NCBI GenBank assembly: GCA_017134395.1
Contig: CP070993.1
Span: forward strand, 526,199-590,198
Length of the DNA stretch: 64,000 nt
Direction: 5' to 3'
Source: Candidatus Kaiserbacteria bacterium
Lineage (GTDB): Bacteria; Patescibacteriota; Minisyncoccia; Phycocordibacterales; UBA2100
Shown: piece after piece, positions 18,795 through 64,000 of the stretch
How positions within the stretch are numbered: position 1 is the first letter of the stretch
Layout of the letters: each line of letters opens with the position of its first letter
Position numbers and translations under genes: made by a program
Notes under the pieces: model-generated
The model's database searches: none
Told to the model about the DNA's origin: nothing
The model's input: only the letters and a program-made list of their open reading frames with translations

Positions 18795-18887
18795 ATTCGC
18801 GAAATATACCACGAGTCGGGCACAACTCAAACAAATACTCAATAAAGTAAACGCCTCAGTGACTGAGGCGTTTACTATTTCTGTGGC

Positions 18888-47495: not shown

Positions 47496-47520
47496 TAATT
47501 CTCTGCGAAAGCTACTATAC

Positions 47521-47548
47521 AAAAAACCGCCCCCAGGGGCGGTTTTTT
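47521..47548. terminator. intrinsic terminator immediately after rpsJ
   Basis: aaaaaaccgcccc-cagg-ggcggtttttt. Confidence 0.75.
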
Positions 47549-47591
47549 GTATGCAACATATTAATCCCGTAAATTTCTGTAGTTAAAGCGA

Positions 47592-47627
47592 TTAAACCAC
47601 CAAAACGCATGCGTTTTGGTGGTTTAA
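47592..47627. repeat. perfect 36-bp palindrome between rpsJ and rplC
   Basis: ttaaaccaccaaaacgca|tgcgttttggtggtttaa. Confidence 0.7.
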
Positions 47628-47761
47628 CTTGCATCATAAAAATCTTCATGTATACTCTTTGAGTCTTAAAAGACGGCTACGTCCCCTTGAGAGTGTTCTC
47701 ATGAGGAACCAATGGCACTAAGCGAGCTGCTCAGTGTTATTGAGTAGCATTTTTTATACCC

Positions 47762-49479: not shown

Positions 49480-50322
49480 ATGAAAAAGCATAAGCCAATA
49501 ACACCAGGTCGTCGCGGGATGACACGAGTTTCATACAAAGCTAAAGTTACGGTAAGTAAGCCTCTAAAGGCACTTACTAAAGGAATGAAGCGTGGAGTAG
49601 GACGAAACTCAGCAGGACGCATTACTACTCGACACAAAGGTGGTGGACACAAGCGCCGATGGCGAGAGATTGACTTCAGGTACGATAAGATTGGAATTCC
49701 AGCTAAAATCGAGACTGTTGAATACGATCCAAACCGAACTGCATACATTGGTCTCGCACTTTACGCAGATGGAGAACGACGTTACGTTGTTATCCCCAAG
49801 TCTGTAGAGGTAGGACACGAGTTCCTTATCGCAGAAGATGCACCGGTAAAGCCTGCAGGACGTCTACCATTAGGAAAGATTCCAATTGGAACATTCATCT
49901 ATAATATTGAAATAAAGCCAAATGGCGGTGCAAAATTGGCACGTTCTGCTGGAAACTATGCAGAAGTTATTGCTCACGACGCAGGATACACTCAAATCAA
50001 GATGCCTTCGTCAGAAGTTCGAAAAATATTGAGTACGGCATGGGCATGCATTGGTGAAGTTTCAAACGATGAACACAAGCTTGTAACTATCGGAAAAGCT
50101 GGGCGTGCACGACACATGGGACGCCGTCCAACAGTTCGTGGTGCTGCCATGAACGCCGTAGATCACCCACATGGTGGTGGTGAAGGTAAAGCAGGACGTG
50201 GACACCGTCGCGCACGAAGTAAGTGGGGTAAGCCTACAGGAAAGGGGCAGAAGACTCGAAAAGCAAAGAAATACTCAAACACACTTATTGTTCGTCGCCG
50301 AAAGGTTGGCAAAAAGCGATAA
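49480..50322 (+). CDS. rplB: 50S ribosomal protein L2
   Basis: canonical L2 (…HPHGGGEGK…). Confidence 0.95.
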   Translation: MKKHKPITPGRRGMTRVSYKAKVTVSKPLKALTKGMKRGVGRNSAGRITTRHKGGGHKRRWREIDFRYDKIGIPAKIETVEYDPNRTAYIGLALYADGERRYVVIPKSVEVGHEFLIAEDAPVKPAGRLPLGKIPIGTFIYNIEIKPNGGAKLARSAGNYAEVIAHDAGYTQIKMPSSEVRKILSTAWACIGEVSNDEHKLVTIGKAGRARHMGRRPTVRGAAMNAVDHPHGGGEGKAGRGHRRARSKWGKPTGKGQKTRKAKKYSNTLIVRRRKVGKKR

Positions 50323-50323
50323 T

Positions 50324-50357
50324 AAAAAAACCGACAGCTCTGCTGTCGGTTTTTTTA
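50324..50357. terminator. intrinsic terminator directly after rplB
   Basis: aaaaaaaccgacagc-tctg-ctgtcggttttttt. Confidence 0.8.
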
Positions 50358-50360
50358 TTC

Positions 50361-50407
50361 AGATAAAGTAAAAGGCCTCACGAATACATTCGCGAGGCCT
50401 TTTTTAG
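50361..50407. repeat. direct repeat unit 1 (contains a terminator hairpin)
   Basis: agataaagtaaaaggcctcacgaatacattcgcgaggccttttttag; ~90% identical to 51069-51116. Confidence 0.8.
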
Positions 50408-50429
50408 CGCTTAGGAACTTTTGAGATAG

Positions 50430-50990
50430 TTACCAATACGCGAACGGATCTTGCCATTCGGGGTATTTCTCATCAAGCCAAGCCAGAGCTTGTTTCCAAC
50501 ACCCACTCTCTTTGTGCTTACCTATATCTTCGTAAGTACCTGGAATTGAACGTATGACCTTTGCGCTTTCGGTATTTTGAATTGCAAAAAGGTCATTGGT
50601 CGGCAAGGTCCGATCTATAATTATTGTCGAACAGGGGACACCTTCATCTCCGCCAAGCATGTTATTGTATGGGCGAAAGCGTGTCAGTAATGTCGTGTGA
50701 TATTCTGGTGAACGATCACCGACATTTACATTAACTTCACCTCGACAACGATGCTGGTCGTCGAAGAGGCCTTTGGTTTCCCACCCTTTTTCCTCATGAG
50801 GTATCGTACCTATTGTCCAGCCATGAGGCAGAGAATGGCAATAAACATGACCGCCTGCTTTTTCGAGAACAAAACCCGCAGCCTGCATTTTTTTGAAATG
50901 TTCGTCAGGAAAACGATACGGTTCTCTTTCAGCTCGCCGTGGGGCAAGTTCGAAATAGACATAGTTAAGATCAATGTACTCATTAGGCAT
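50430..50990 (-). CDS. hypothetical protein (186 aa, His/Cys/Trp-containing, enzyme-like) antisense inside the S10 operon
   Basis: strong SD AGGAGG 6 nt before the ATG; no family recognised. Confidence 0.55.
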   Translation of the reverse strand: MPNEYIDLNYVYFELAPRRAEREPYRFPDEHFKKMQAAGFVLEKAGGHVYCHSLPHGWTIGTIPHEEKGWETKGLFDDQHRCRGEVNVNVGDRSPEYHTTLLTRFRPYNNMLGGDEGVPCSTIIIDRTLPTNDLFAIQNTESAKVIRSIPGTYEDIGKHKESGCWKQALAWLDEKYPEWQDPFAYW

Positions 50991-51068
50991 AGTAACCTCC
51001 TGTGGTTATTTCCTAAAATTAGAGTACAGCTTTTGACTATTTTAAGCAATGCTATTTCGAATTTAAGA

Positions 51069-51116
51069 AGATAAAAAGTAAAAGGCCTCACGAATACATC
51101 CGTGAGGCCTTTTGGA
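51069..51116. repeat. direct repeat unit 2 (contains a terminator hairpin)
   Basis: agataaaaagtaaaaggcctcacgaatacatccgtgaggccttttgg. Confidence 0.8.
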
Positions 51117-51128
51117 GTTTGAAGGTGT

Positions 51129-51344
51129 TTATTTATTTAGAGACTTAAGCTCTGCGCGATACTCATTCAAACGTTCTTGCAGCTCAATTTCTTGTTGCCC
51201 TGCAGCCTCTTCGATAGCTTCTTCAACCCGACCGATTGCGAGTAGAACCGCAAATTTGCAATCGAAAAGATCACGTTCATGGTCGCCTGCTTTTTCGGGT
51301 TCAATGGTGGTACCATCTCTAGAAACAGTGTAGCGAGTTTCCAT
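51129..51344 (-). CDS. small acidic hypothetical protein (71 aa)
   Basis: SD AAAGGAG 7 nt before the ATG; METRYTVSRDGTTIEPEKAGDHERDLFDCKF…; ends just before repeat unit 2. Confidence 0.5.
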   Translation of the reverse strand: METRYTVSRDGTTIEPEKAGDHERDLFDCKFAVLLAIGRVEEAIEEAAGQQEIELQERLNEYRAELKSLNK

Positions 51345-51440
51345 GTACAAGCTCCTTTCTGTACAAGGCACATTCAAGGTACCAAAACTCATAGTATGCT
51401 GCATATATATTTCCGCAAGGGGCGCAGGAGCACAATAAGA

Positions 51441-51469
51441 TTGACTTATCGGCCAATTTCGCATAGTAT
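51441..51469 (+). promoter_or_regulatory. sigma70-like promoter TTGACT-17-TAGTAT upstream of rpsS
   Basis: ttgact tatcggccaatttcgca tagtat; restarts rightward transcription after the antisense cassette. Confidence 0.5.
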
Positions 51470-51553
51470 ATGCGGCACGCCACTGAGGCGGCTTTTTATT
51501 GCAAAGCGAGAGGAGCTCACAAGCCTCTCTGTACAGGCAATATATCCAACAAT

Positions 51554-51883
51554 ATGACACGATCAATAAAAAAAGGACCTTACGTCGACGCTAAGTTGAT
51601 GAAAAAAATTACCGGAAAAACTCCAGAAGATAGTGGGGTAATTAACACGTGGGCACGTGGAAGTGATATCGCACCAGAAATGGTAGGGTTTACATTTGGT
51701 GTACACAACGGACGAAAGCACATTGATGTGCTCGTTACTGACGATATGGTAGGACACAAACTTGGTGAATTTTCACCAACTAAGACGTTCCACCGACATG
51801 GAGGTAAGATGCAGAAGGAGCTTGAGGTAAAGAAGAAAGAAGCTGAAGTAACTGCAGCAAAAGCTGCGAAAGCAGCAGCATAA
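51554..51883 (+). CDS. rpsS: 30S ribosomal protein S19 (with C-terminal K/A-rich extension)
   Basis: [12 protein letters not shown]…[17 protein letters not shown]. Confidence 0.93.
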
Positions 51884-53793: not shown

Positions 53794-54165
53794 ATGATTC
53801 AACCGCAAACAATAGTAAAAATCACCGATAACTCAGGAGGTAAAATTGCCCGCGTTTTCAAAGTACTCGGTGGATCAAAACGACGGTACGCACGTATTGG
53901 AGATGAGGTGGTTATTGCTGTACAAAGTGCAGAACCACGAAAGCAGGTAAAGAAGAAAGATGTACTGCGCGCTGTTGTAGTACGACAAGTACAGCCGTTT
54001 CGTCGTCGCGATGGTTCATACATTCGCTTTGACGAAAACGCTGTAGTGATTGTTGAAAAAGGAAAGAAAGAACCAAAGGCAAACCGTGTATTTGGTCCTA
54101 TTCCTCGAGAGATTTCAGAACGTGGTTATCAGAAAATCGTGTCGCTTGCACCTGAAGTAGTATAG
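53794..54165 (+). CDS. rplN: 50S ribosomal protein L14
   Basis: MIQPQTIVKITDNSGGK…. Confidence 0.95.
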   Translation: MIQPQTIVKITDNSGGKIARVFKVLGGSKRRYARIGDEVVIAVQSAEPRKQVKKKDVLRAVVVRQVQPFRRRDGSYIRFDENAVVIVEKGKKEPKANRVFGPIPREISERGYQKIVSLAPEVV

Positions 54166-54168
54166 ATT

Positions 54169-54483
54169 TTGAATATGAAGATTAAAAAAGGAGACAAAGT
54201 AATAGTTATCGCAGGGAAAGACAAAGGAAAGTCTGGGGCGGTACTTCGCGCACTTCCACGAGAAGACAAGGTGATTGTTGAGGGTGTAAACGTTGCTAAG
54301 CGTCACCAAAAAGCACGTCGCGGAGGAGAAAGTGGACAAATTATCGACAAAACACTTCCCGTACACATTTCAAACGTTGCGCTCGCCGACCCTAAGGGTG
54401 GAAAGCCAACTCGAATTGGCATTGAACGCAAAGACGGAAAGCGTGTACGAGTTGCTAAGAAGAGTGGAACAGTAATAAAGTAA
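54169..54483 (+). CDS. rplX: 50S ribosomal protein L24 (start may be the Met at 54175)
   Basis: [19 protein letters not shown]…. Confidence 0.92.
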
Positions 54484-54484
54484 T

Positions 54485-55027
54485 ATGGAAACACTAGCTG
54501 AAAAACAAACAAATATGTTCAAAGCGCTTAAAGAGCGTTTTGGATACAAGAGCATTATGCAAACACCAAAGCTCGATAAAATCGTTATCTCTGCAAAGGT
54601 TGGTTCAATGAACGACAAAAACAAGATTGCACTTGTCGTTGATCGTCTTGCAAAAATTACCGGACAGCAGCCAAAAGCAAACCCTGCTAAGAAGTCAATT
54701 GCTACGTTCAAATTACGAGAAGGAACTATTATTGGGTACTCTGTAACGCTGCGAGGACAACGAATGCGTAATTTCCTCGACAAACTCATTCATGTTGCAC
54801 TTCCTCGAACACGTGACTTCCGCGGATTAGAGGTAACTGCAATTGATGAGATGGGCAATTACACTATTGGTATTAAAGAACACACTATTTTCCCAGAAAC
54901 TTCTGATGAAGATCTTCGAGACGTATTTGGACTTGGTGTGACACTTGTCACAACCGCAAAAACAAAAGAAGAAGCAGAAGCATTCTTGCGAGAAATCGGA
55001 CTTCCTCTAAAGAAAACAGCAGAATAA
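54485..55027 (+). CDS. rplE: 50S ribosomal protein L5
   Basis: canonical L5. Confidence 0.95.
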   Translation: METLAEKQTNMFKALKERFGYKSIMQTPKLDKIVISAKVGSMNDKNKIALVVDRLAKITGQQPKANPAKKSIATFKLREGTIIGYSVTLRGQRMRNFLDKLIHVALPRTRDFRGLEVTAIDEMGNYTIGIKEHTIFPETSDEDLRDVFGLGVTLVTTAKTKEEAEAFLREIGLPLKKTAE

Positions 55028-55097
55028 ACTAAAAACCGACTCTTAGGGTCGATTTTTTATATCTACGTAGGTACTTAGCGCTGATTACATACAAGAG

Positions 55098-55137
55098 TCA
55101 TAAACCATCAGAATGCAGGCATTCTGATGGTTTATGA
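55098..55137. repeat. near-perfect 40-bp palindrome in the rplE-rpsZ gap
   Basis: gtcataaaccatcagaatgc-ag-gcattctgatggtttatgag (17-bp perfect arms). Confidence 0.7.
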
Positions 55138-55190
55138 GACACTGTCGTGCTTAATCATTAAGGCGTGTATTTCCACTCTCGTTACCTTTA

Positions 55191-55219
55191 TTGACTTTGT
55201 ATACCACCTCAGGTAATAT
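55191..55219 (+). promoter_or_regulatory. sigma70-like promoter TTGACT-17-TAATAT inside the spc cluster, ~220 nt upstream of rpsZ
   Basis: ttgact ttgtataccacctcagg taatat; the leader has several small hairpins (tgacctttaatcaaaaggtca, ctacaaagactctttgtag, cgtttaggaacg). Confidence 0.5.
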
Positions 55220-55444
55220 GCTCGCACCTGAAGAAGGTCACAGTTTCATGCGTGCAAGAAGGATTGCACAAAACACAGCTACAAAGACTCTTTGTAGCCA
55301 ACATGAGTGACCTTTAATCAAAAGGTCAATTTTAAATAAGGAACAGAGTTTTACGAAGTAAAACGACAATTCCGAATTTATGCCGCGCACTTCGTGACGT
55401 TTAGGAACGTTAGTGCAGCCGGCTAAAAAGAACATATCAATATT

Positions 55445-55631
55445 TATGGCAAAGAAATCAATGATTGCGCGAGCACAAAAGACACCGAAATTCCTTTCGC
55501 GTGTTGTTCGCCGTTGTTTCAAGTGTGGACGCCCACGAGGCTACATGCGTGCTTTTGACCTGTGTCGTATCTGCTTCCGAGAAGAGGCACTAGAAGGACA
55601 CATCCCCGGAATTAAGAAATCATCATGGTAG
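55445..55631 (+). CDS. rpsZ: 30S ribosomal protein S14 type Z (zinc-binding)
   Basis: [12 protein letters not shown]…[23 protein letters not shown] (C-x-x-C … C-x-x-C), 61 aa. Confidence 0.93.
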
Positions 55632-56020
55632 GCGACCCGATAGGAGACTTCATAGTGCGTTTAAAGAACGCCGGCGCAGTAAAGCACGAAGGTGTGGCAC
55701 TTCCGCATTCTAAGATGAAAATGGCTGTTGCTGAAGTTCTTAAGAATGCTGGATTCATCAAGTCTGTTGAAAAGCAAGGAAAGAAGATTCGAAAGACTAT
55801 TCATGTTGAACTTATGTATAAAGAAGATGGAACACCACGTATTACAGAAGTGAAGCGTGTTTCAAAGCCGGGACGTCGTGTATACAAAGGAGCAGATGAA
55901 ATTTTTCCTGTGCGTTACGGTAAAGGAATGCTCGTGCTCTCAACACCAAAAGGTATTTTGACAGATTCACAGGCACGAAAGGAGCGAGTTGGAGGAGAGG
56001 CGTTATTTGAAATTTGGTAA
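55625..56020 (+). CDS. rpsH: 30S ribosomal protein S8
   Basis: canonical S8. Confidence 0.95.
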
Positions 56021-56021
56021 T

Positions 56022-56558
56022 ATGAGTCGAATTGGTAAACAAGCTATTGTTATTCCTGCGGGAGTCGAAGTATCTATCACAGATAATGTTATTTCAGTGA
56101 AGGGTAAAGGAGGAGAACTGCAAAAAAATCTTCACGATGACGTTTCTATTGTGGTAGATGGAGAGGCAGTTGTGGTGACTCCCAAGAACGAGACACGAGC
56201 TGCTCAAGCTCTCTGGGGAACATTCTCTTCTCATATGCGAAACATGATTGACGGTGTGAACACACCTTTTGAAAAAAAGCTCCTCGTAGAAGGAGTTGGT
56301 TTCAAGGTAGATTTGAGCGGTTCAAAACTTGTACTGAACGTTGGATTCTCGCATCCAATAGAAATGATAGTTCCTGATGGGTTAGACGTGTCTGTTGAAA
56401 AGAACGAAATAACTATCAAAGGAGCAAACAAAGAAACTGTTGGTCAGTTCGCTGCTAACGTGCGAGCAAACAAAAAGCCAGAACCGTACAAAGGGAAAGG
56501 TATTCGTTACCATGATGAAGTGGTTCGTCGAAAGGAAGGTAAGCGCGCAACCGCATAG
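56022..56558 (+). CDS. rplF: 50S ribosomal protein L6
   Basis: MSRIGKQAIVIPAGVEVS…. Confidence 0.95.
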   Translation: MSRIGKQAIVIPAGVEVSITDNVISVKGKGGELQKNLHDDVSIVVDGEAVVVTPKNETRAAQALWGTFSSHMRNMIDGVNTPFEKKLLVEGVGFKVDLSGSKLVLNVGFSHPIEMIVPDGLDVSVEKNEITIKGANKETVGQFAANVRANKKPEPYKGKGIRYHDEVVRRKEGKRATA

Positions 56559-61945: not shown

Positions 61946-64000
61946 ATGCCGCACATGGAAGGGTCAACACCTGATGTATCCTCAACAGAACCCGTTGAGC
62001 GTTTTCGCACACCAGAGGAAGAACTTGCGTACTTACGCGAACGGGTGCGTATAAAAGAAACTGAACTTGAAGGAGAAAAGTCAGGCTTCGAGAAAGACAG
62101 AATTGCAAAAAGAGAAATTATTAAATATCACGATACCCCGGCCGAAGATGTTCTACACGAACGATACCAAACGTCAGAAAGTCATATATTACGCGAAAAA
62201 CTACGTCTCGAACCCGAAGAGCATGATGTACAGATTGATGAGCTTTTGAAAATGGTGGCAGATAAGGGTATTAAAAATACTCTCGCAGTGGTAAGTAAGA
62301 TGGGTAGTGCACATCTTGAAGATGATTTACATCGAGCGCTTGTTCAGTATGTTGCTGAAGGATTTTCAACACAGGGAGTACGGAAAGGCTCTGAAGACTG
62401 GAAAGCGTTACACATGGTCCTCTATGAGGTTTCGCTTCCAGCCCAAACTGCAAACGACAAAAATAATCAAAACCAAGATCTCGAAAAACTTCTTGCATCC
62501 ATGGAGCAATTTTATGCTGGGATGCTGAGTGTTATGGGAAAGGGAAAACTCCAGAAAAAAGATATTTTTTCTGTTGAGATTGCAGTGCATCAAGGAAGCG
62601 AAGAGGCGATTTTTTATGTTGGGGTACCACGCAAAAAAAGAGATTTGTTTGAACGACACCTTATTTCCATATTTCCTAACGCTCAAATCGAAGAAGTGCG
62701 CAGTGATTACAATATTTTCAGTTATGGAGGAGTTCACGCTGGGGCATATGGTGTTCTCGAAAGAAGTCCGGTGTATCCAATAAAAGAATACAAAGAATTT
62801 GTGCACGATCCACTAAACATCGTACTTTCAGCATTCAGCAAGCTTAAAAAACATGGAGAAGGAGCGGCTATTCAATTTATTATTGGCGACGACGGAGATT
62901 CATATAACCGCCAATATAAAAAGGTAGTTGATTATCTTCGCGATGGAAAAGAAGCAAAAAAGGCAATACGTCATGGAACATCACCATTTCGTGAAGCAGT
63001 AGACGCGCTTGGTGAGAATCTTGTTGATATAGCGATGAATCGCTCAAAGAATACGATAAACGATAAAGCAGTTGATCAAATGACTCTCGAGACAATCACT
63101 AAGAAGGTTAATAGTCGTATTGTTCCAGTAAACATTCGTATACTTGCTTCAGCACAAGAAGAGGGTCGTGCGGAGGACATTATTGAAAACATTGCATCAA
63201 CATTTAACCAATTCGAAGAAGCGCAGGGTAATGCAATCAAATTTATCCACGAACGTGGCGCAGCATTACGGAAATTCATGCACGCATTCACTTTCCGGAC
63301 ACTCAACTTTAAAAGACTACAGCCGCTTTCTCTTACGGAACTGACATCCATGTACCATCTTACGGGACAAGGAGTTTCAACATCGCGTGAACTTAAACAA
63401 ACACGTGCAAAACATGTTTCAGCTCCTATTGAAGTATCTGCAGACGAAGACGACGAAGAGCCAGTACAAAAGGCACCTTACGTACCAACTCCTGCACCTG
63501 TTGACCAACATAAAGAAGAAGTAGTTGCCCCAGCCCCAATGGCGAATACACAAAAAAGACGTGGTGTAATACTCGGAAAGAACACGTTTGGCGGTACTGA
63601 TACGATGGTCAAGTTCTTAGCGGAAGACCGTATGCGTCACTTCTACGAAATTGGACAAACGGGAACAGGTAAAACAAACCTGATGAAGAATATGATCATT
63701 CAAGATATTAAGAACGGAGAGGGGTGCTGTTACATTGATCCACATGGTTCAGATATTGTTGATATTTTGGCAGCTATTCCACCTGAAAGACACGACGATG
63801 TTATCTATTTCGACCCAAGTTACACAGAACGCCCGATGGGTCTTAACATAATGGAATATAATCCAGATTTTCCTGAGCAGAAAACGTTTGTAGTAAACGA
63901 AATATTCAGTATTTTTGAAAAACTTTTCTTGGCAAAATCACCTGAGTCGCTTGGCCCGATGTTTGAGCAGTACTTCCGTAACGCTGCACTTTTGGTGCTT
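61946..64000 (+). CDS. large P-loop NTPase (TraD/VirD4/HerA-like ATPase domain) with ~550-aa unique N-terminal region; 3'-truncated by the window edge
   Basis: open frame from the ATG at 61946 to the window end with no stop; Walker A YEIGQTGTGKTN followed by CCYIDPHGSDIV…VIYFDPS; absent from the ORF track only because it is incomplete. Confidence 0.6.
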   Translation, partial: MPHMEGSTPDVSSTEPVERFRTPEEELAYLRERVRIKETELEGEKSGFEKDRIAKREIIKYHDTPAEDVLHERYQTSESHILREKLRLEPEEHDVQIDELLKMVADKGIKNTLAVVSKMGSAHLEDDLHRALVQYVAEGFSTQGVRKGSEDWKALHMVLYEVSLPAQTANDKNNQNQDLEKLLASMEQFYAGMLSVMGKGKLQKKDIFSVEIAVHQGSEEAIFYVGVPRKKRDLFERHLISIFPNAQIEEVRSDYNIFSYGGVHAGAYGVLERSPVYPIKEYKEFVHDPLNIVLSAFSKLKKHGEGAAIQFIIGDDGDSYNRQYKKVVDYLRDGKEAKKAIRHGTSPFREAVDALGENLVDIAMNRSKNTINDKAVDQMTLETITKKVNSRIVPVNIRILASAQEEGRAEDIIENIASTFNQFEEAQGNAIKFIHERGAALRKFMHAFTFRTLNFKRLQPLSLTELTSMYHLTGQGVSTSRELKQTRAKHVSAPIEVSADEDDEEPVQKAPYVPTPAPVDQHKEEVVAPAPMANTQKRRGVILGKNTFGGTDTMVKFLAEDRMRHFYEIGQTGTGKTNLMKNMIIQDIKNGEGCCYIDPHGSDIVDILAAIPPERHDDVIYFDPSYTERPMGLNIMEYNPDFPEQKTFVVNEIFSIFEKLFLAKSPESLGPMFEQYFRNAALLVL

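Follow-up and report, generated by a model that had tools for sequence, protein, structure and literature searches.

The stretch of DNA analysed here, called the window below, comprises 64,000 nt of the genome of a Candidatus Kaiserbacteria bacterium (assembly GCA_017134395.1, contig CP070993.1, positions 526,199 to 590,198 of the forward strand); all coordinates are counted from its first nucleotide. The subject is the gap that separates rplE from rpsN, the genes for ribosomal proteins L5 and S14, and the candidate regulatory RNA leader that lies in it upstream of rpsN. An earlier note, made from the letters alone, had given this gap 415 bp and an S14 start at 55445: the gap itself is there, with corrected figures, i.e. 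418 nt (55028-55445) and an ATG at 55446. The parts of the locus are, in order:

54485-55027, plus strand: rplE (L5), an open reading frame (ORF) matching Pfam Ribosomal_L5 and L5_C; final gene of the S19...L5 unit.
55037-55058, plus strand: predicted intrinsic terminator of the S19...L5 unit, stem CGACTC/GGGTCG and loop TTA (hairpin 55037-55051), then ATTTTTT.
55098-55137, no strand assigned: perfect hairpin or palindrome of the TAAAC...GTTTA family, with arms 55098-55116 and 55119-55137 of 19 nt each, 100% complementary, around a 2-nt centre.
55191-55219, plus strand: sigma-70-type promoter of the S14 operon, TTGACT-17-TAATAT.
55220-55225, plus strand: GC-rich discriminator GCTCGC, between the -10 hexamer and the predicted transcription start (GCTCGC or GCGCGC in most members of the leader family described below).
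55226-55337, plus strand: domain 1 (D1) of the leader, from the predicted start to the end of the U-tract of hairpin T.
55333-55380, plus strand: domain 2a (D2a), a stem-loop with a covarying hairpin (55348-55364) and a conserved 4x5 internal loop, CAGA/GACAA.
55382-55423, plus strand: domain 2b (D2b), a stem GCCGCGCAC.../...GUGCAGCCGGC with a variable inner hairpin, from the alignment structure.
55424-55445, plus strand: A/U-rich unstructured tract before the start codon, without a Shine-Dalgarno sequence.
55446-55631, plus strand: rpsN (S14, 61 aa, Zn-ribbon type), an ORF with its ATG at 55446 and a match to Pfam S14; heads the S14-S8-L6-L18-S5-L15-SecY... unit.
55238-55522, minus strand: 94-aa ORF with a TTG start and no Pfam match, considered spurious.

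The gene order from rpsN onward was confirmed in the loci of relatives; rpsH (S8) starts at 55625, directly after rpsN and downstream of the leader. The L5 relatives found in species-representative genomes were all from Patescibacteria (Paceibacteria, Kaiserbacteria and 'UBA' metagenome-assembled genomes), the nearest being UBA2100 (99%); a look-up of the L5 protein of the window by exact sequence returned no match. The set compared consisted of 73 loci of L5 relatives (single loci are designated L001, L002 and so on), each fetched up to 3 kb downstream of rplE. S14 was found in 63 of them, at a distance from L5 of 1 to 2253 nt, a small gap being almost never seen; in the other 10, S14 and S8 were not found within the stretch fetched. 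The larger gaps contain 84 ORFs, on both strands, 72 of which are unrelated singletons. With such distances and so many unrelated ORFs, the rplE/rpsN junction reads as a regular operon break and an insertion hotspot in the class Paceibacteria. Insertions were noted in L004-L073, L085:813-2160, L092:1456-2136 and L094:1413-2066, where the cassettes come with terminators and promoters of their own; L092 and L094 have a homologous inserted ORF in common, which belongs to no Pfam family (motif ...WD..RGP.NRN.RR..).

The weak hairpin and T-run that had been pointed out after rplE are present (stem at 55037-55051), and a GC-rich hairpin followed by a T-run lies directly 3' of rplE in all relatives of the clade that carries D1, where rpsN also has its own promoter. 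As to the promoter proposed at 55191-55219, a single match of this kind is not above chance (11 promoter-like sites in 10 kb versus 15.6 expected); we take it as real because TTGAC[AT]-17-TAnnAT is found at the homologous place, with identical spacing, in 19 of the 19 leader-carrying loci. Transcription would start near 55226. Upstream of the -35 hexamer there is no conservation, the spacer being 62-63% identical to those of L001 and L081 when rplE is 81-93% identical; the promoter together with D1 is 81% identical to its counterpart in L081, versus 63% for the spacer and 81% for rplE.

The 223-nt leader was predicted to fold at -64.7 kcal/mol (z = -5.8 versus shuffles), with five hairpin elements where the earlier note had counted at least three. 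A conserved block, running from the promoter to a hairpin and T-run, was first seen in an alignment of the window with eight relatives. A covariance model of it, R1, was built from four sequences; it matched 9 loci of the first locus set and, after context look-ups of S8 relatives, 19 loci, every one directly upstream of rpsN and on the same strand. No credible match was obtained elsewhere in the more than 500 kb searched, the sole other one being a fragment in L081 (15.8 bits, E = 1.2). A scan of metagenomes with the exact core pattern returned seven contigs, and in all seven the pattern stood between rplE and rpsN. D1 is carried by the loci with an S8 identity to the window of about 76% or more; the R1 search found the domain neither in L093 (S8 73%) nor in any of the more distant relatives. 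The elements of D1, which involve two alternative folds (A and B), are:

55226-55238, plus strand: P0, a small 5' hairpin ACCU-GAAGA-AGGU, present in fold B only and seen in constrained folds.
55233-55241, plus strand: 5' strand of helix P1a, GAAGGUCAC, the putative antiterminator strand, paired with 55307-55315 in fold A according to the RNAalifold consensus.
55242-55245, plus strand: conserved bulge (C)ACAGUU adjoining P1b; family consensus ACAR(Y)U in the alignments.
55246-55306, plus strand: constant three-way core of the domain, made of P1b (55246-55250 with 55302-55306), the P2 hairpin (55252-55269) with its invariant loop GNAGGA, and the variable hairpin P3 (55278-55298).
55307-55315, plus strand: 3' strand of P1a and also 5' arm of hairpin T; the switching segment GUGACCUUU, which can pair upstream or downstream.
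55308-55337, plus strand: T, a terminator-like hairpin UGACCUUU-AAUCA-AAAGGUCA (55308-55328) with the U-rich tract AUUUUAAAU (tail as DNA, ATTTTAAAT).

Conservation and covariation across relatives, which had been suggested as a check, were examined on the alignment of the 19 members: 92% of the cells are paired and 15 of the 20 pairs have changed on both sides, counts that lean towards structure because they were made on related sequences in model-fitted alignments. Alignments slid out of register gave 26-43% pairing and none of 500 shuffles reached the observed values. The best paired helices are P1b (97.8%) and P2 (98.2%), each with five pairs changed on both sides and many independent pair types; P1a shows double changes in five of its nine pairs, and most members retain hairpin P3, its sequence being unrelated from one to the next. 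The invariant parts that are not paired are the GNAGGA loop of P2 and the ACAR(Y)U bulge beside P1b. No ribosomal-protein leader family was matched in the Rfam/Infernal scan that had been advised: with Rfam 15 the region 54000-56500 gave chance matches only at E of 10 or below, the whole window gave four tRNAs as its only gathering-level matches, and 20 relatives gave nothing relevant. There is no tRNA or tmRNA in the rplE-rpsN gap. D1 is, on this comparative footing, a new RNA family of one clade of Patescibacteria, without a match in Rfam.

Domain 2 (D2, 55333-55423) has a still narrower distribution, for it was found only in the window, L001, L081, L002 and L075, which form the sub-clade of the window. 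The D2a hairpin shows five compensatory pairs (GUUUUAC/GUAAAAC in the window, GCUUUAC/GUAAAGC in L002, GUCCGCC/GGCGGGC in L075), and the domain is 91.7% identical to that of L081, versus 81-85% for rplE and rpsH. Judging from these alignments, it is a second conserved structured module. In the nearest relative, L001, D2b carries a 57-nt insertion (L001:3862-3918, aligned to window position 55397) in which ...GCACTTCGTG... is repeated; it looks like a partial tandem duplication. We consider it very probable that two transcription units meet at the L5/S14 gap, that the internal promoter is real and that the leader is a structured cis-acting element under selection.

The central feature of D1 is that its 3' segment can pair in two ways. 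The RNAalifold consensus selects the long-range helix P1a, and the minimum-energy fold of the window sequence is this same fold A, in which the 5' end of the leader pairs with both arms of T. Forcing the segment 55307-55315 to pair downstream gave fold B, composed of P0, the same core, T and the U-run, with an energy in the window of -34.7 kcal/mol versus -35.9 kcal/mol for fold A. Both folds are possible in each of 18 members; their energies are within 3 kcal/mol of each other in 15 of the 18 and within 1.5 kcal/mol in 11. In L003 and L087, GACC has become GGCC or GGUC and a U to C change has occurred in both partners of the switching segment, which makes a three-way covariation. When the 5' segment was shuffled, fold A was weaker in all 18 members. 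The hairpin and U-rich tail of T are kept in 18 of the 19 members, and in the 13 leaders of the short form no more than a few bases to about 15 nt remain between the end of the U-tract of T and the rpsN ATG. Two traits of an attenuator are found together here, namely a hairpin with a U-run between the promoter and the first start codon, and a mutually exclusive pairing of one terminator arm that is supported by covariation. As far as sequences can tell, the promoter, the terminators, the helices (which co-vary) and the two alternative folds are conserved, and the anatomy of D1 is that of a terminator/antiterminator attenuator. To the further proposition that the leader works as a two-state transcription attenuator we give an even chance.

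A different layout was noted in another group of relatives (L037, L041, L043, L046, L048, L049, L052-L059, L064, L069 and L073), which have a longer S14 with a different N-terminus. The minimal leader of this L037 group consists of a promoter TTGACA...TGATACATT, a 5-bp GC hairpin (of the GCUCC-CCGG-GGAGC type) and UAUUUUU, with the ATG directly after; it looks like a terminator placed right after a promoter.

The explanation that we favour as a whole, with a confidence slightly above even, combines an operon boundary with a leader acting as a ligand-shifted attenuator of the S14 operon. Transcription of the S19...L5 unit would stop at the intrinsic terminator at 55037-55058, and the strong, conserved promoter at 55191-55219 would start the S14-S8-L6-L18-S5-L15-SecY unit at about 55226. 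The leader of ~220 nt would then be a cis-regulatory RNA, probably throttling the S14-S8-L6 operon. In fold A, the switching segment would pair with the 5' end of the leader, acting as an antiterminator and permitting read-through; in fold B (with P0), it would form the hairpin followed by the U-run and end transcription before rpsN. A factor sensing a surplus of free ribosomal protein would bind the conserved single-stranded parts and shift the balance towards fold B. This factor is most likely encoded downstream, S8 being the leading candidate because sister lineages carry a mimic of the S8 site at the same position. The earlier note had suggested a ribosomal-protein autoregulatory element, for instance a relocated S8 or L5 binding site: a regulatory role is borne out by a conservation at least equal to that of the flanking genes, by the covariation and by the two-state design, and a recognisable S8 or L5 site is what was not found. 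Nothing in the analysis points to L5 as the ligand.

The case of S8 is one of position and of precedent among the relatives. In the more distant ones, a compact hairpin is present upstream of rpsN, GGnAAGUC-helix-loop-helix-GAUACUnCC, with the variants GAGAC and GAAAC; its core AAGUC...GAUACU is that of positions 595-599/639-644 of E. coli 16S rRNA (read from rrsH). The S8 site is defined by an asymmetric 4x5 internal loop, a G597-C643 pair with N641 as triple partner, a U598-A640 pair, an invariant bulged A642 and an A595-(A596-U644) triple (PMC4176348), and the hairpin of the relatives fits this published definition (G597-C643 with N641, A642, and the 595-596-644 triple). When 20 of these hairpins were aligned, 85% of the cells were paired and 10 of the 12 pairs had changed on both sides. 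The covariance model made from them, R2, matched 23 relatives with E values of 1e-10 to 1e-5, always 15-180 nt upstream of rpsN (L011:3681-3724, L026:3750-3794, L020:4029-4072, L015:4505-4548 and 19 further loci). No Rfam family was found for the hairpin. R2 did not match helix 21 in E. coli 16S rRNA because the distal part of the rRNA helix is ~35 nt longer, and the equivalence of the cores was therefore read directly from the sequence. The hairpin looks like an undescribed, candidate S8 autoregulatory leader, located elsewhere than the S8 site of E. coli, and control by S8 through a mimic of helix 21 in front of rpsN is apparently the usual arrangement in the class.

In the window and in the 19 loci of the D1 clade R2 found nothing significant. 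The leader of the window does belong to the transcript that encodes S8, rpsH coming directly after rpsN; the core of the S8 site, i.e. the (G597-C643)-N641 triple, A642 and the A595-(A596-U644) triple, is missing from it. D1 was rejected as an S8 mimic on manual checking, as no register of it threads through an S8-like core. D2a, the best plus-strand match of R2 in the gap (4.3 bits, E = 2.5, not significant), has in common with the S8 core the size of the 4x5 loop and the letters G...GAC and lacks both the U598-A640 pair and a Watson-Crick 596-644 pair; it was retained as a weak lead and no more. Another form of rRNA mimicry was discarded. Words of 7 to 9 nt from the leader cluster on positions 363-548 of E. 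coli 16S rRNA (10 in 190 nt, reached by 6 of 1000 shuffles); the D1 words are not conserved in the family, and the two D2b words are on the same strand in 16S rRNA but mutually paired in the leader. A resemblance to helix II/III of 5S rRNA came down to one 7-mer in common with E. coli 5S rRNA. An absent motif does not exclude binding, for S8 also binds non-canonical loops, as an aptamer demonstrates (PMC4176348). That a ribosomal protein of the operon is the signal, S8 in the first place, is a guess by analogy; for S8 itself we would put the chances somewhat below even. More tentative still is the idea that the feedback RNA in front of rpsN-rpsH has been replaced within Paceibacteria, most lineages having a helix-21 copy for S8 and the clade of the window an unrelated, riboswitch-like two-state attenuator (D1, with D2 added in the sub-clade), under the control of a non-canonical S8 site or of another ribosomal protein.

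Several points weigh against a ligand-shifted attenuator. Taken sequence by sequence, the energy control of fold A is modest (median z = -1.7), the pair counts of D1 come from model-fitted alignments of related sequences, and the CCU/AGG core of P0 is invariant, hence without support from covariation. In the window, T is separated from the ATG downstream by 117 nt, which include domain 2. Its U-tract is short, begins after one or two A's (AAUUUU) and is weaker than those of the bona fide terminators of the genome. A hairpin and a U-rich tract right before the ATG are also present in very short leaders (L009, L037 group), where constitutive termination would be senseless. T might serve translation or stability rather than termination, because the genes start without Shine-Dalgarno sequences and the minimal leaders of relatives have a hairpin and a U-rich tract before their start codons. 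To this must be added the missing S8-like core in D1 and the non-significant score of D2a, and the fact that the start site, the premature 3' ends, the direction of the regulation and the identity of the ligand, with the response to it, are all inferred.

A first rival reading is a constitutive 5' untranslated region (UTR) without any ligand, in which the hairpins protect against decay, the U/A-rich tracts load ribosomes independently of a Shine-Dalgarno sequence and the alternative pairing is incidental. Such loading is in keeping with the gene starts of the window: none of the 25 inspected between 45883 and 61165 has a Shine-Dalgarno-like sequence, and A/U-rich tracts precede the start codons. 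Leaders reduced to a hairpin and a U-rich tract are found before rpsN in L009, L013 and the L037 group, and before rplC in the window as well (47726-47748). However, stability elements have no need of an invariant GNAGGA loop and ACAGUU bulge kept across 19 species, nor does a constitutive UTR require a segment complementary to two partners, with three-way covariation and near-equal energies. We regard this explanation as rather unlikely.

Slightly less credit is due to a switch acting on translation or on mRNA processing, through ribosome access or RNase cleavage, in the manner in which S8 represses the E. coli spc operon. Translation is the level at which S8 is known to act (PMC3616713), the U-tract of T is suboptimal for termination, and in the 13 short-form members T and its U-tract are close to the ATG. 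Yet the start codon and the A/U-rich tract are equally unpaired in both folds, the ATG of the window is 117 nt away from T, and the geometry of a hairpin plus U-run is kept though there is no Shine-Dalgarno sequence to mask. Action at the level of translation or processing thus seems unlikely to us.

The palindrome at 55098-55137 raises a separate question. Its coordinates and 2-nt centre were as the earlier note had them; the perfect arms are of 19 nt, not 17. It is situated between the rplE terminator and the S14 promoter, outside the predicted S14 transcript, and the chance expectation for its arm sequence is 0.04. At the same place L081, which has the same S14 protein, carries AGCTAAACCACCAAAATGC-ggt-GCATTTTGGTGGTTTAGCT, again with perfect 19-nt arms; the arms differ from those of the window at five positions, every one of them mirrored in both arms. 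The same palindrome core is found in L085, set between two inserted cassettes, and related hairpins TAAACGGCTCA...TGAGCCGTTTA are found in L003 and L008, while in L001 the palindrome is reduced to a 6-bp remnant although the leader is intact. Searching the 64-kb window for TAAAC-N14-34-GTTTA gave three matches (55098-55137, 47592-47627 and 18848-18874), all perfect palindromes. One of the two further copies is:

47592-47627, no strand assigned: second TAAAC...GTTTA hairpin, TTAAACCACCAAAACGCA/TGCGTTTTGGTGGTTTAA, in the S10/L3 gap between an intrinsic terminator and a promoter-like site.

It is identical to the arm 55101-55116 at 13 of 16 positions. The third, at 18848-18874 (TAAACGCCTCAG-tga-CTGAGGCGTTTA), occupies a 45-nt gap between two minus-strand ORFs and is related to the hairpins of L003 and L008.

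A protein-binding site or a cruciform, rather than an RNA hairpin, had been the first suggestion for this palindrome. Because the changes in its arms relative to L081 are mirrored, the comparison favours selection on a nucleic-acid hairpin, RNA or single-stranded DNA (the two are not separable here), over a sequence-specific operator. A regulatory role, as operator at which a dimeric protein represses or activates the S14 promoter, or as S8-binding RNA, would agree with its location upstream of a promoter both here and at 47592-47627, and the flanks in the window, AGAGUC...GAGAC, match invariant positions of the S8 core. But the S8 model gives the palindrome 2.5 bits and the flanks are not kept in L081 and L085, so that it was rejected as an S8 mimic and the likeness judged coincidental; with the promoter downstream of it, it does not belong to the S14 mRNA; copies stand anywhere from 1 to 65 nt away from the -35 hexamer; symmetrical change, as seen in its arms, is typical of a hairpin and not of a protein half-site; and in L001 the leader is intact despite the truncation. 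We find a regulatory palindrome improbable. The most economical reading is a second terminator, weak or bidirectional, or a 3'-end hairpin, though without a proper U-tract, because the ordinary terminators of this genome are long perfect palindromes too, with A-rich and U-rich ends, which the ends of the TAAAC...GTTTA stems resemble. REP-like or bidirectional-terminator palindromes are likewise perfect or near-perfect hairpins in intergenic DNA after terminators, with several related copies per genome; what differs here is the want of a proper U-tract, the number of copies (three only in 64 kb) and the absence of transposase or copy-number evidence. Integron attC sites are recognised by RYYYAAC/GTTRRRY ends and extrahelical bases; an attC-like reading was rejected, since the ends of the palindromes are unlike these and the hairpins are perfect, with no extrahelical bases.

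Least probable of all is that promoter, D1 and T form an independent small RNA gene and that rpsN is expressed by read-through only: the unit is complete from promoter to terminator, conserved and of about 110 nt, but in 19 of 19 loci it comes immediately before rpsN and has the same orientation, no copy exists elsewhere in the more than 500 kb searched, and with a terminator after rplE and no other promoter before the essential S14-S8-L6 genes read-through of T is obligatory, which makes the element a leader by definition.

The small ORFs of the gap were rejected as well. The 94-aa antisense ORF, already judged spurious, was rejected as a gene, having no Pfam match and a frame interrupted by stops in six of seven relatives (L081, L002, L075, L003, L006 and L007; L001 keeps a shorter open frame). 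A 39-aa ORF with a TTG start (55191-55310) has no Pfam match and begins inside the promoter, and the length of a mini-ORF in the leader, ATGCCGCGCACTTCGTGA, ranges among relatives from 5 codons to more than 20; neither was retained as a gene.

Other junctions of the ribosomal-protein cluster in the window are broken as well. The S10/L3 junction (47496-47761) is split with the same layout as the L5/S14 gap: a terminator (47522-47549), the TAAACC perfect hairpin (47592-47627), a promoter-like TTGCAT-16-TATACT and a leader of ~100 nt, which ends in a hairpin and T-run (47726-47748) abutting the rplC ATG and is reminiscent of the L4-controlled S10 leader. The L2/S19 junction (50321-51566) is broken by two minus-strand ORFs (50430-50990 and 51129-51566), and the long palindromic terminators behind them (51113-51080 and 50403-50370) are almost identical. 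The ATG of a 137-aa ORF at 51470 comes immediately after a promoter-like TTGACT-17-TAGTAT (51441-51469), which suggests a leaderless start or a mis-set start of S19. After map the cluster does not continue into infA-rpmJ-rpsM-rpsK-rpsD-rpoA (61946-64000); a long ORF with the P-loop motif GQTGTGKT runs off the end of the window, so that the seemingly ORF-free 2 kb at 61.9-64 kb was dismissed as an artefact.

Most of the known feedback RNAs of ribosomal proteins are from E. coli and Bacillus, and our literature search found nothing comparable described for the candidate phyla radiation. The E. coli S10 leader, with L4, is a ribosomal-protein attenuation leader. Another is the infC-rpmI-rplT leader of B. 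subtilis, which acts with L20 by transcription attenuation (PMC1865079). Like these, the leader of the window is long, lies behind a promoter, carries, ahead of the first gene, a terminator-like hairpin with a U-run and an upstream pairing that competes with it, and belongs to a ribosomal-protein operon; it differs from them in being unrelated in sequence and fold, unmatched in Rfam and confined to one clade of Patescibacteria. The RNA that interacts with S8 in the E. coli spc operon overlaps the start of rplE and acts on translation within one operon (PMC3616713). The neighbourhood, rplE-rpsN-rpsH, is the same and both elements presumably match ribosomal-protein synthesis to rRNA, the sister lineages having the textbook helix-21 core upstream of rpsN; the element of the window, in contrast, forms a leader of its own in front of rpsN, with a promoter to itself, and lacks the defining core. 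The evidence is of the same type for the computationally found leader candidates of Eckert & Weinberg 2020 (PMC7247131), which also have a conserved, covarying structure upstream of ribosomal-protein genes and a narrow lineage; none of these families covers rpsN, the spc region or Patescibacteria, and neither rpsN nor Patescibacteria is mentioned in the text of that paper.

Our verdict is that of a new, narrowly distributed ribosomal-protein leader RNA of a known class; in related lineages its position is taken by a sister element, the S8 mimic. The result is incremental rather than surprising, because attenuator-type ribosomal leaders are of a well-known kind. What the locus offers is a new family of conserved leaders, whose design is clearly two-state and whose predicted termination point can be tested. 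It also illustrates how, in these reduced genomes, the otherwise ultra-conserved S10-spc cluster is divided into units under separate control, with the L5/S14 junction as an insertion hotspot, and the helix-21 mimic and D1, occupying the same position, constitute a natural comparison set for the gain or replacement of regulators. If the feedback RNA has indeed been replaced, this would document, for the candidate phyla radiation, the turnover of an autoregulatory RNA of ribosomal proteins whose genomic position has stayed fixed.

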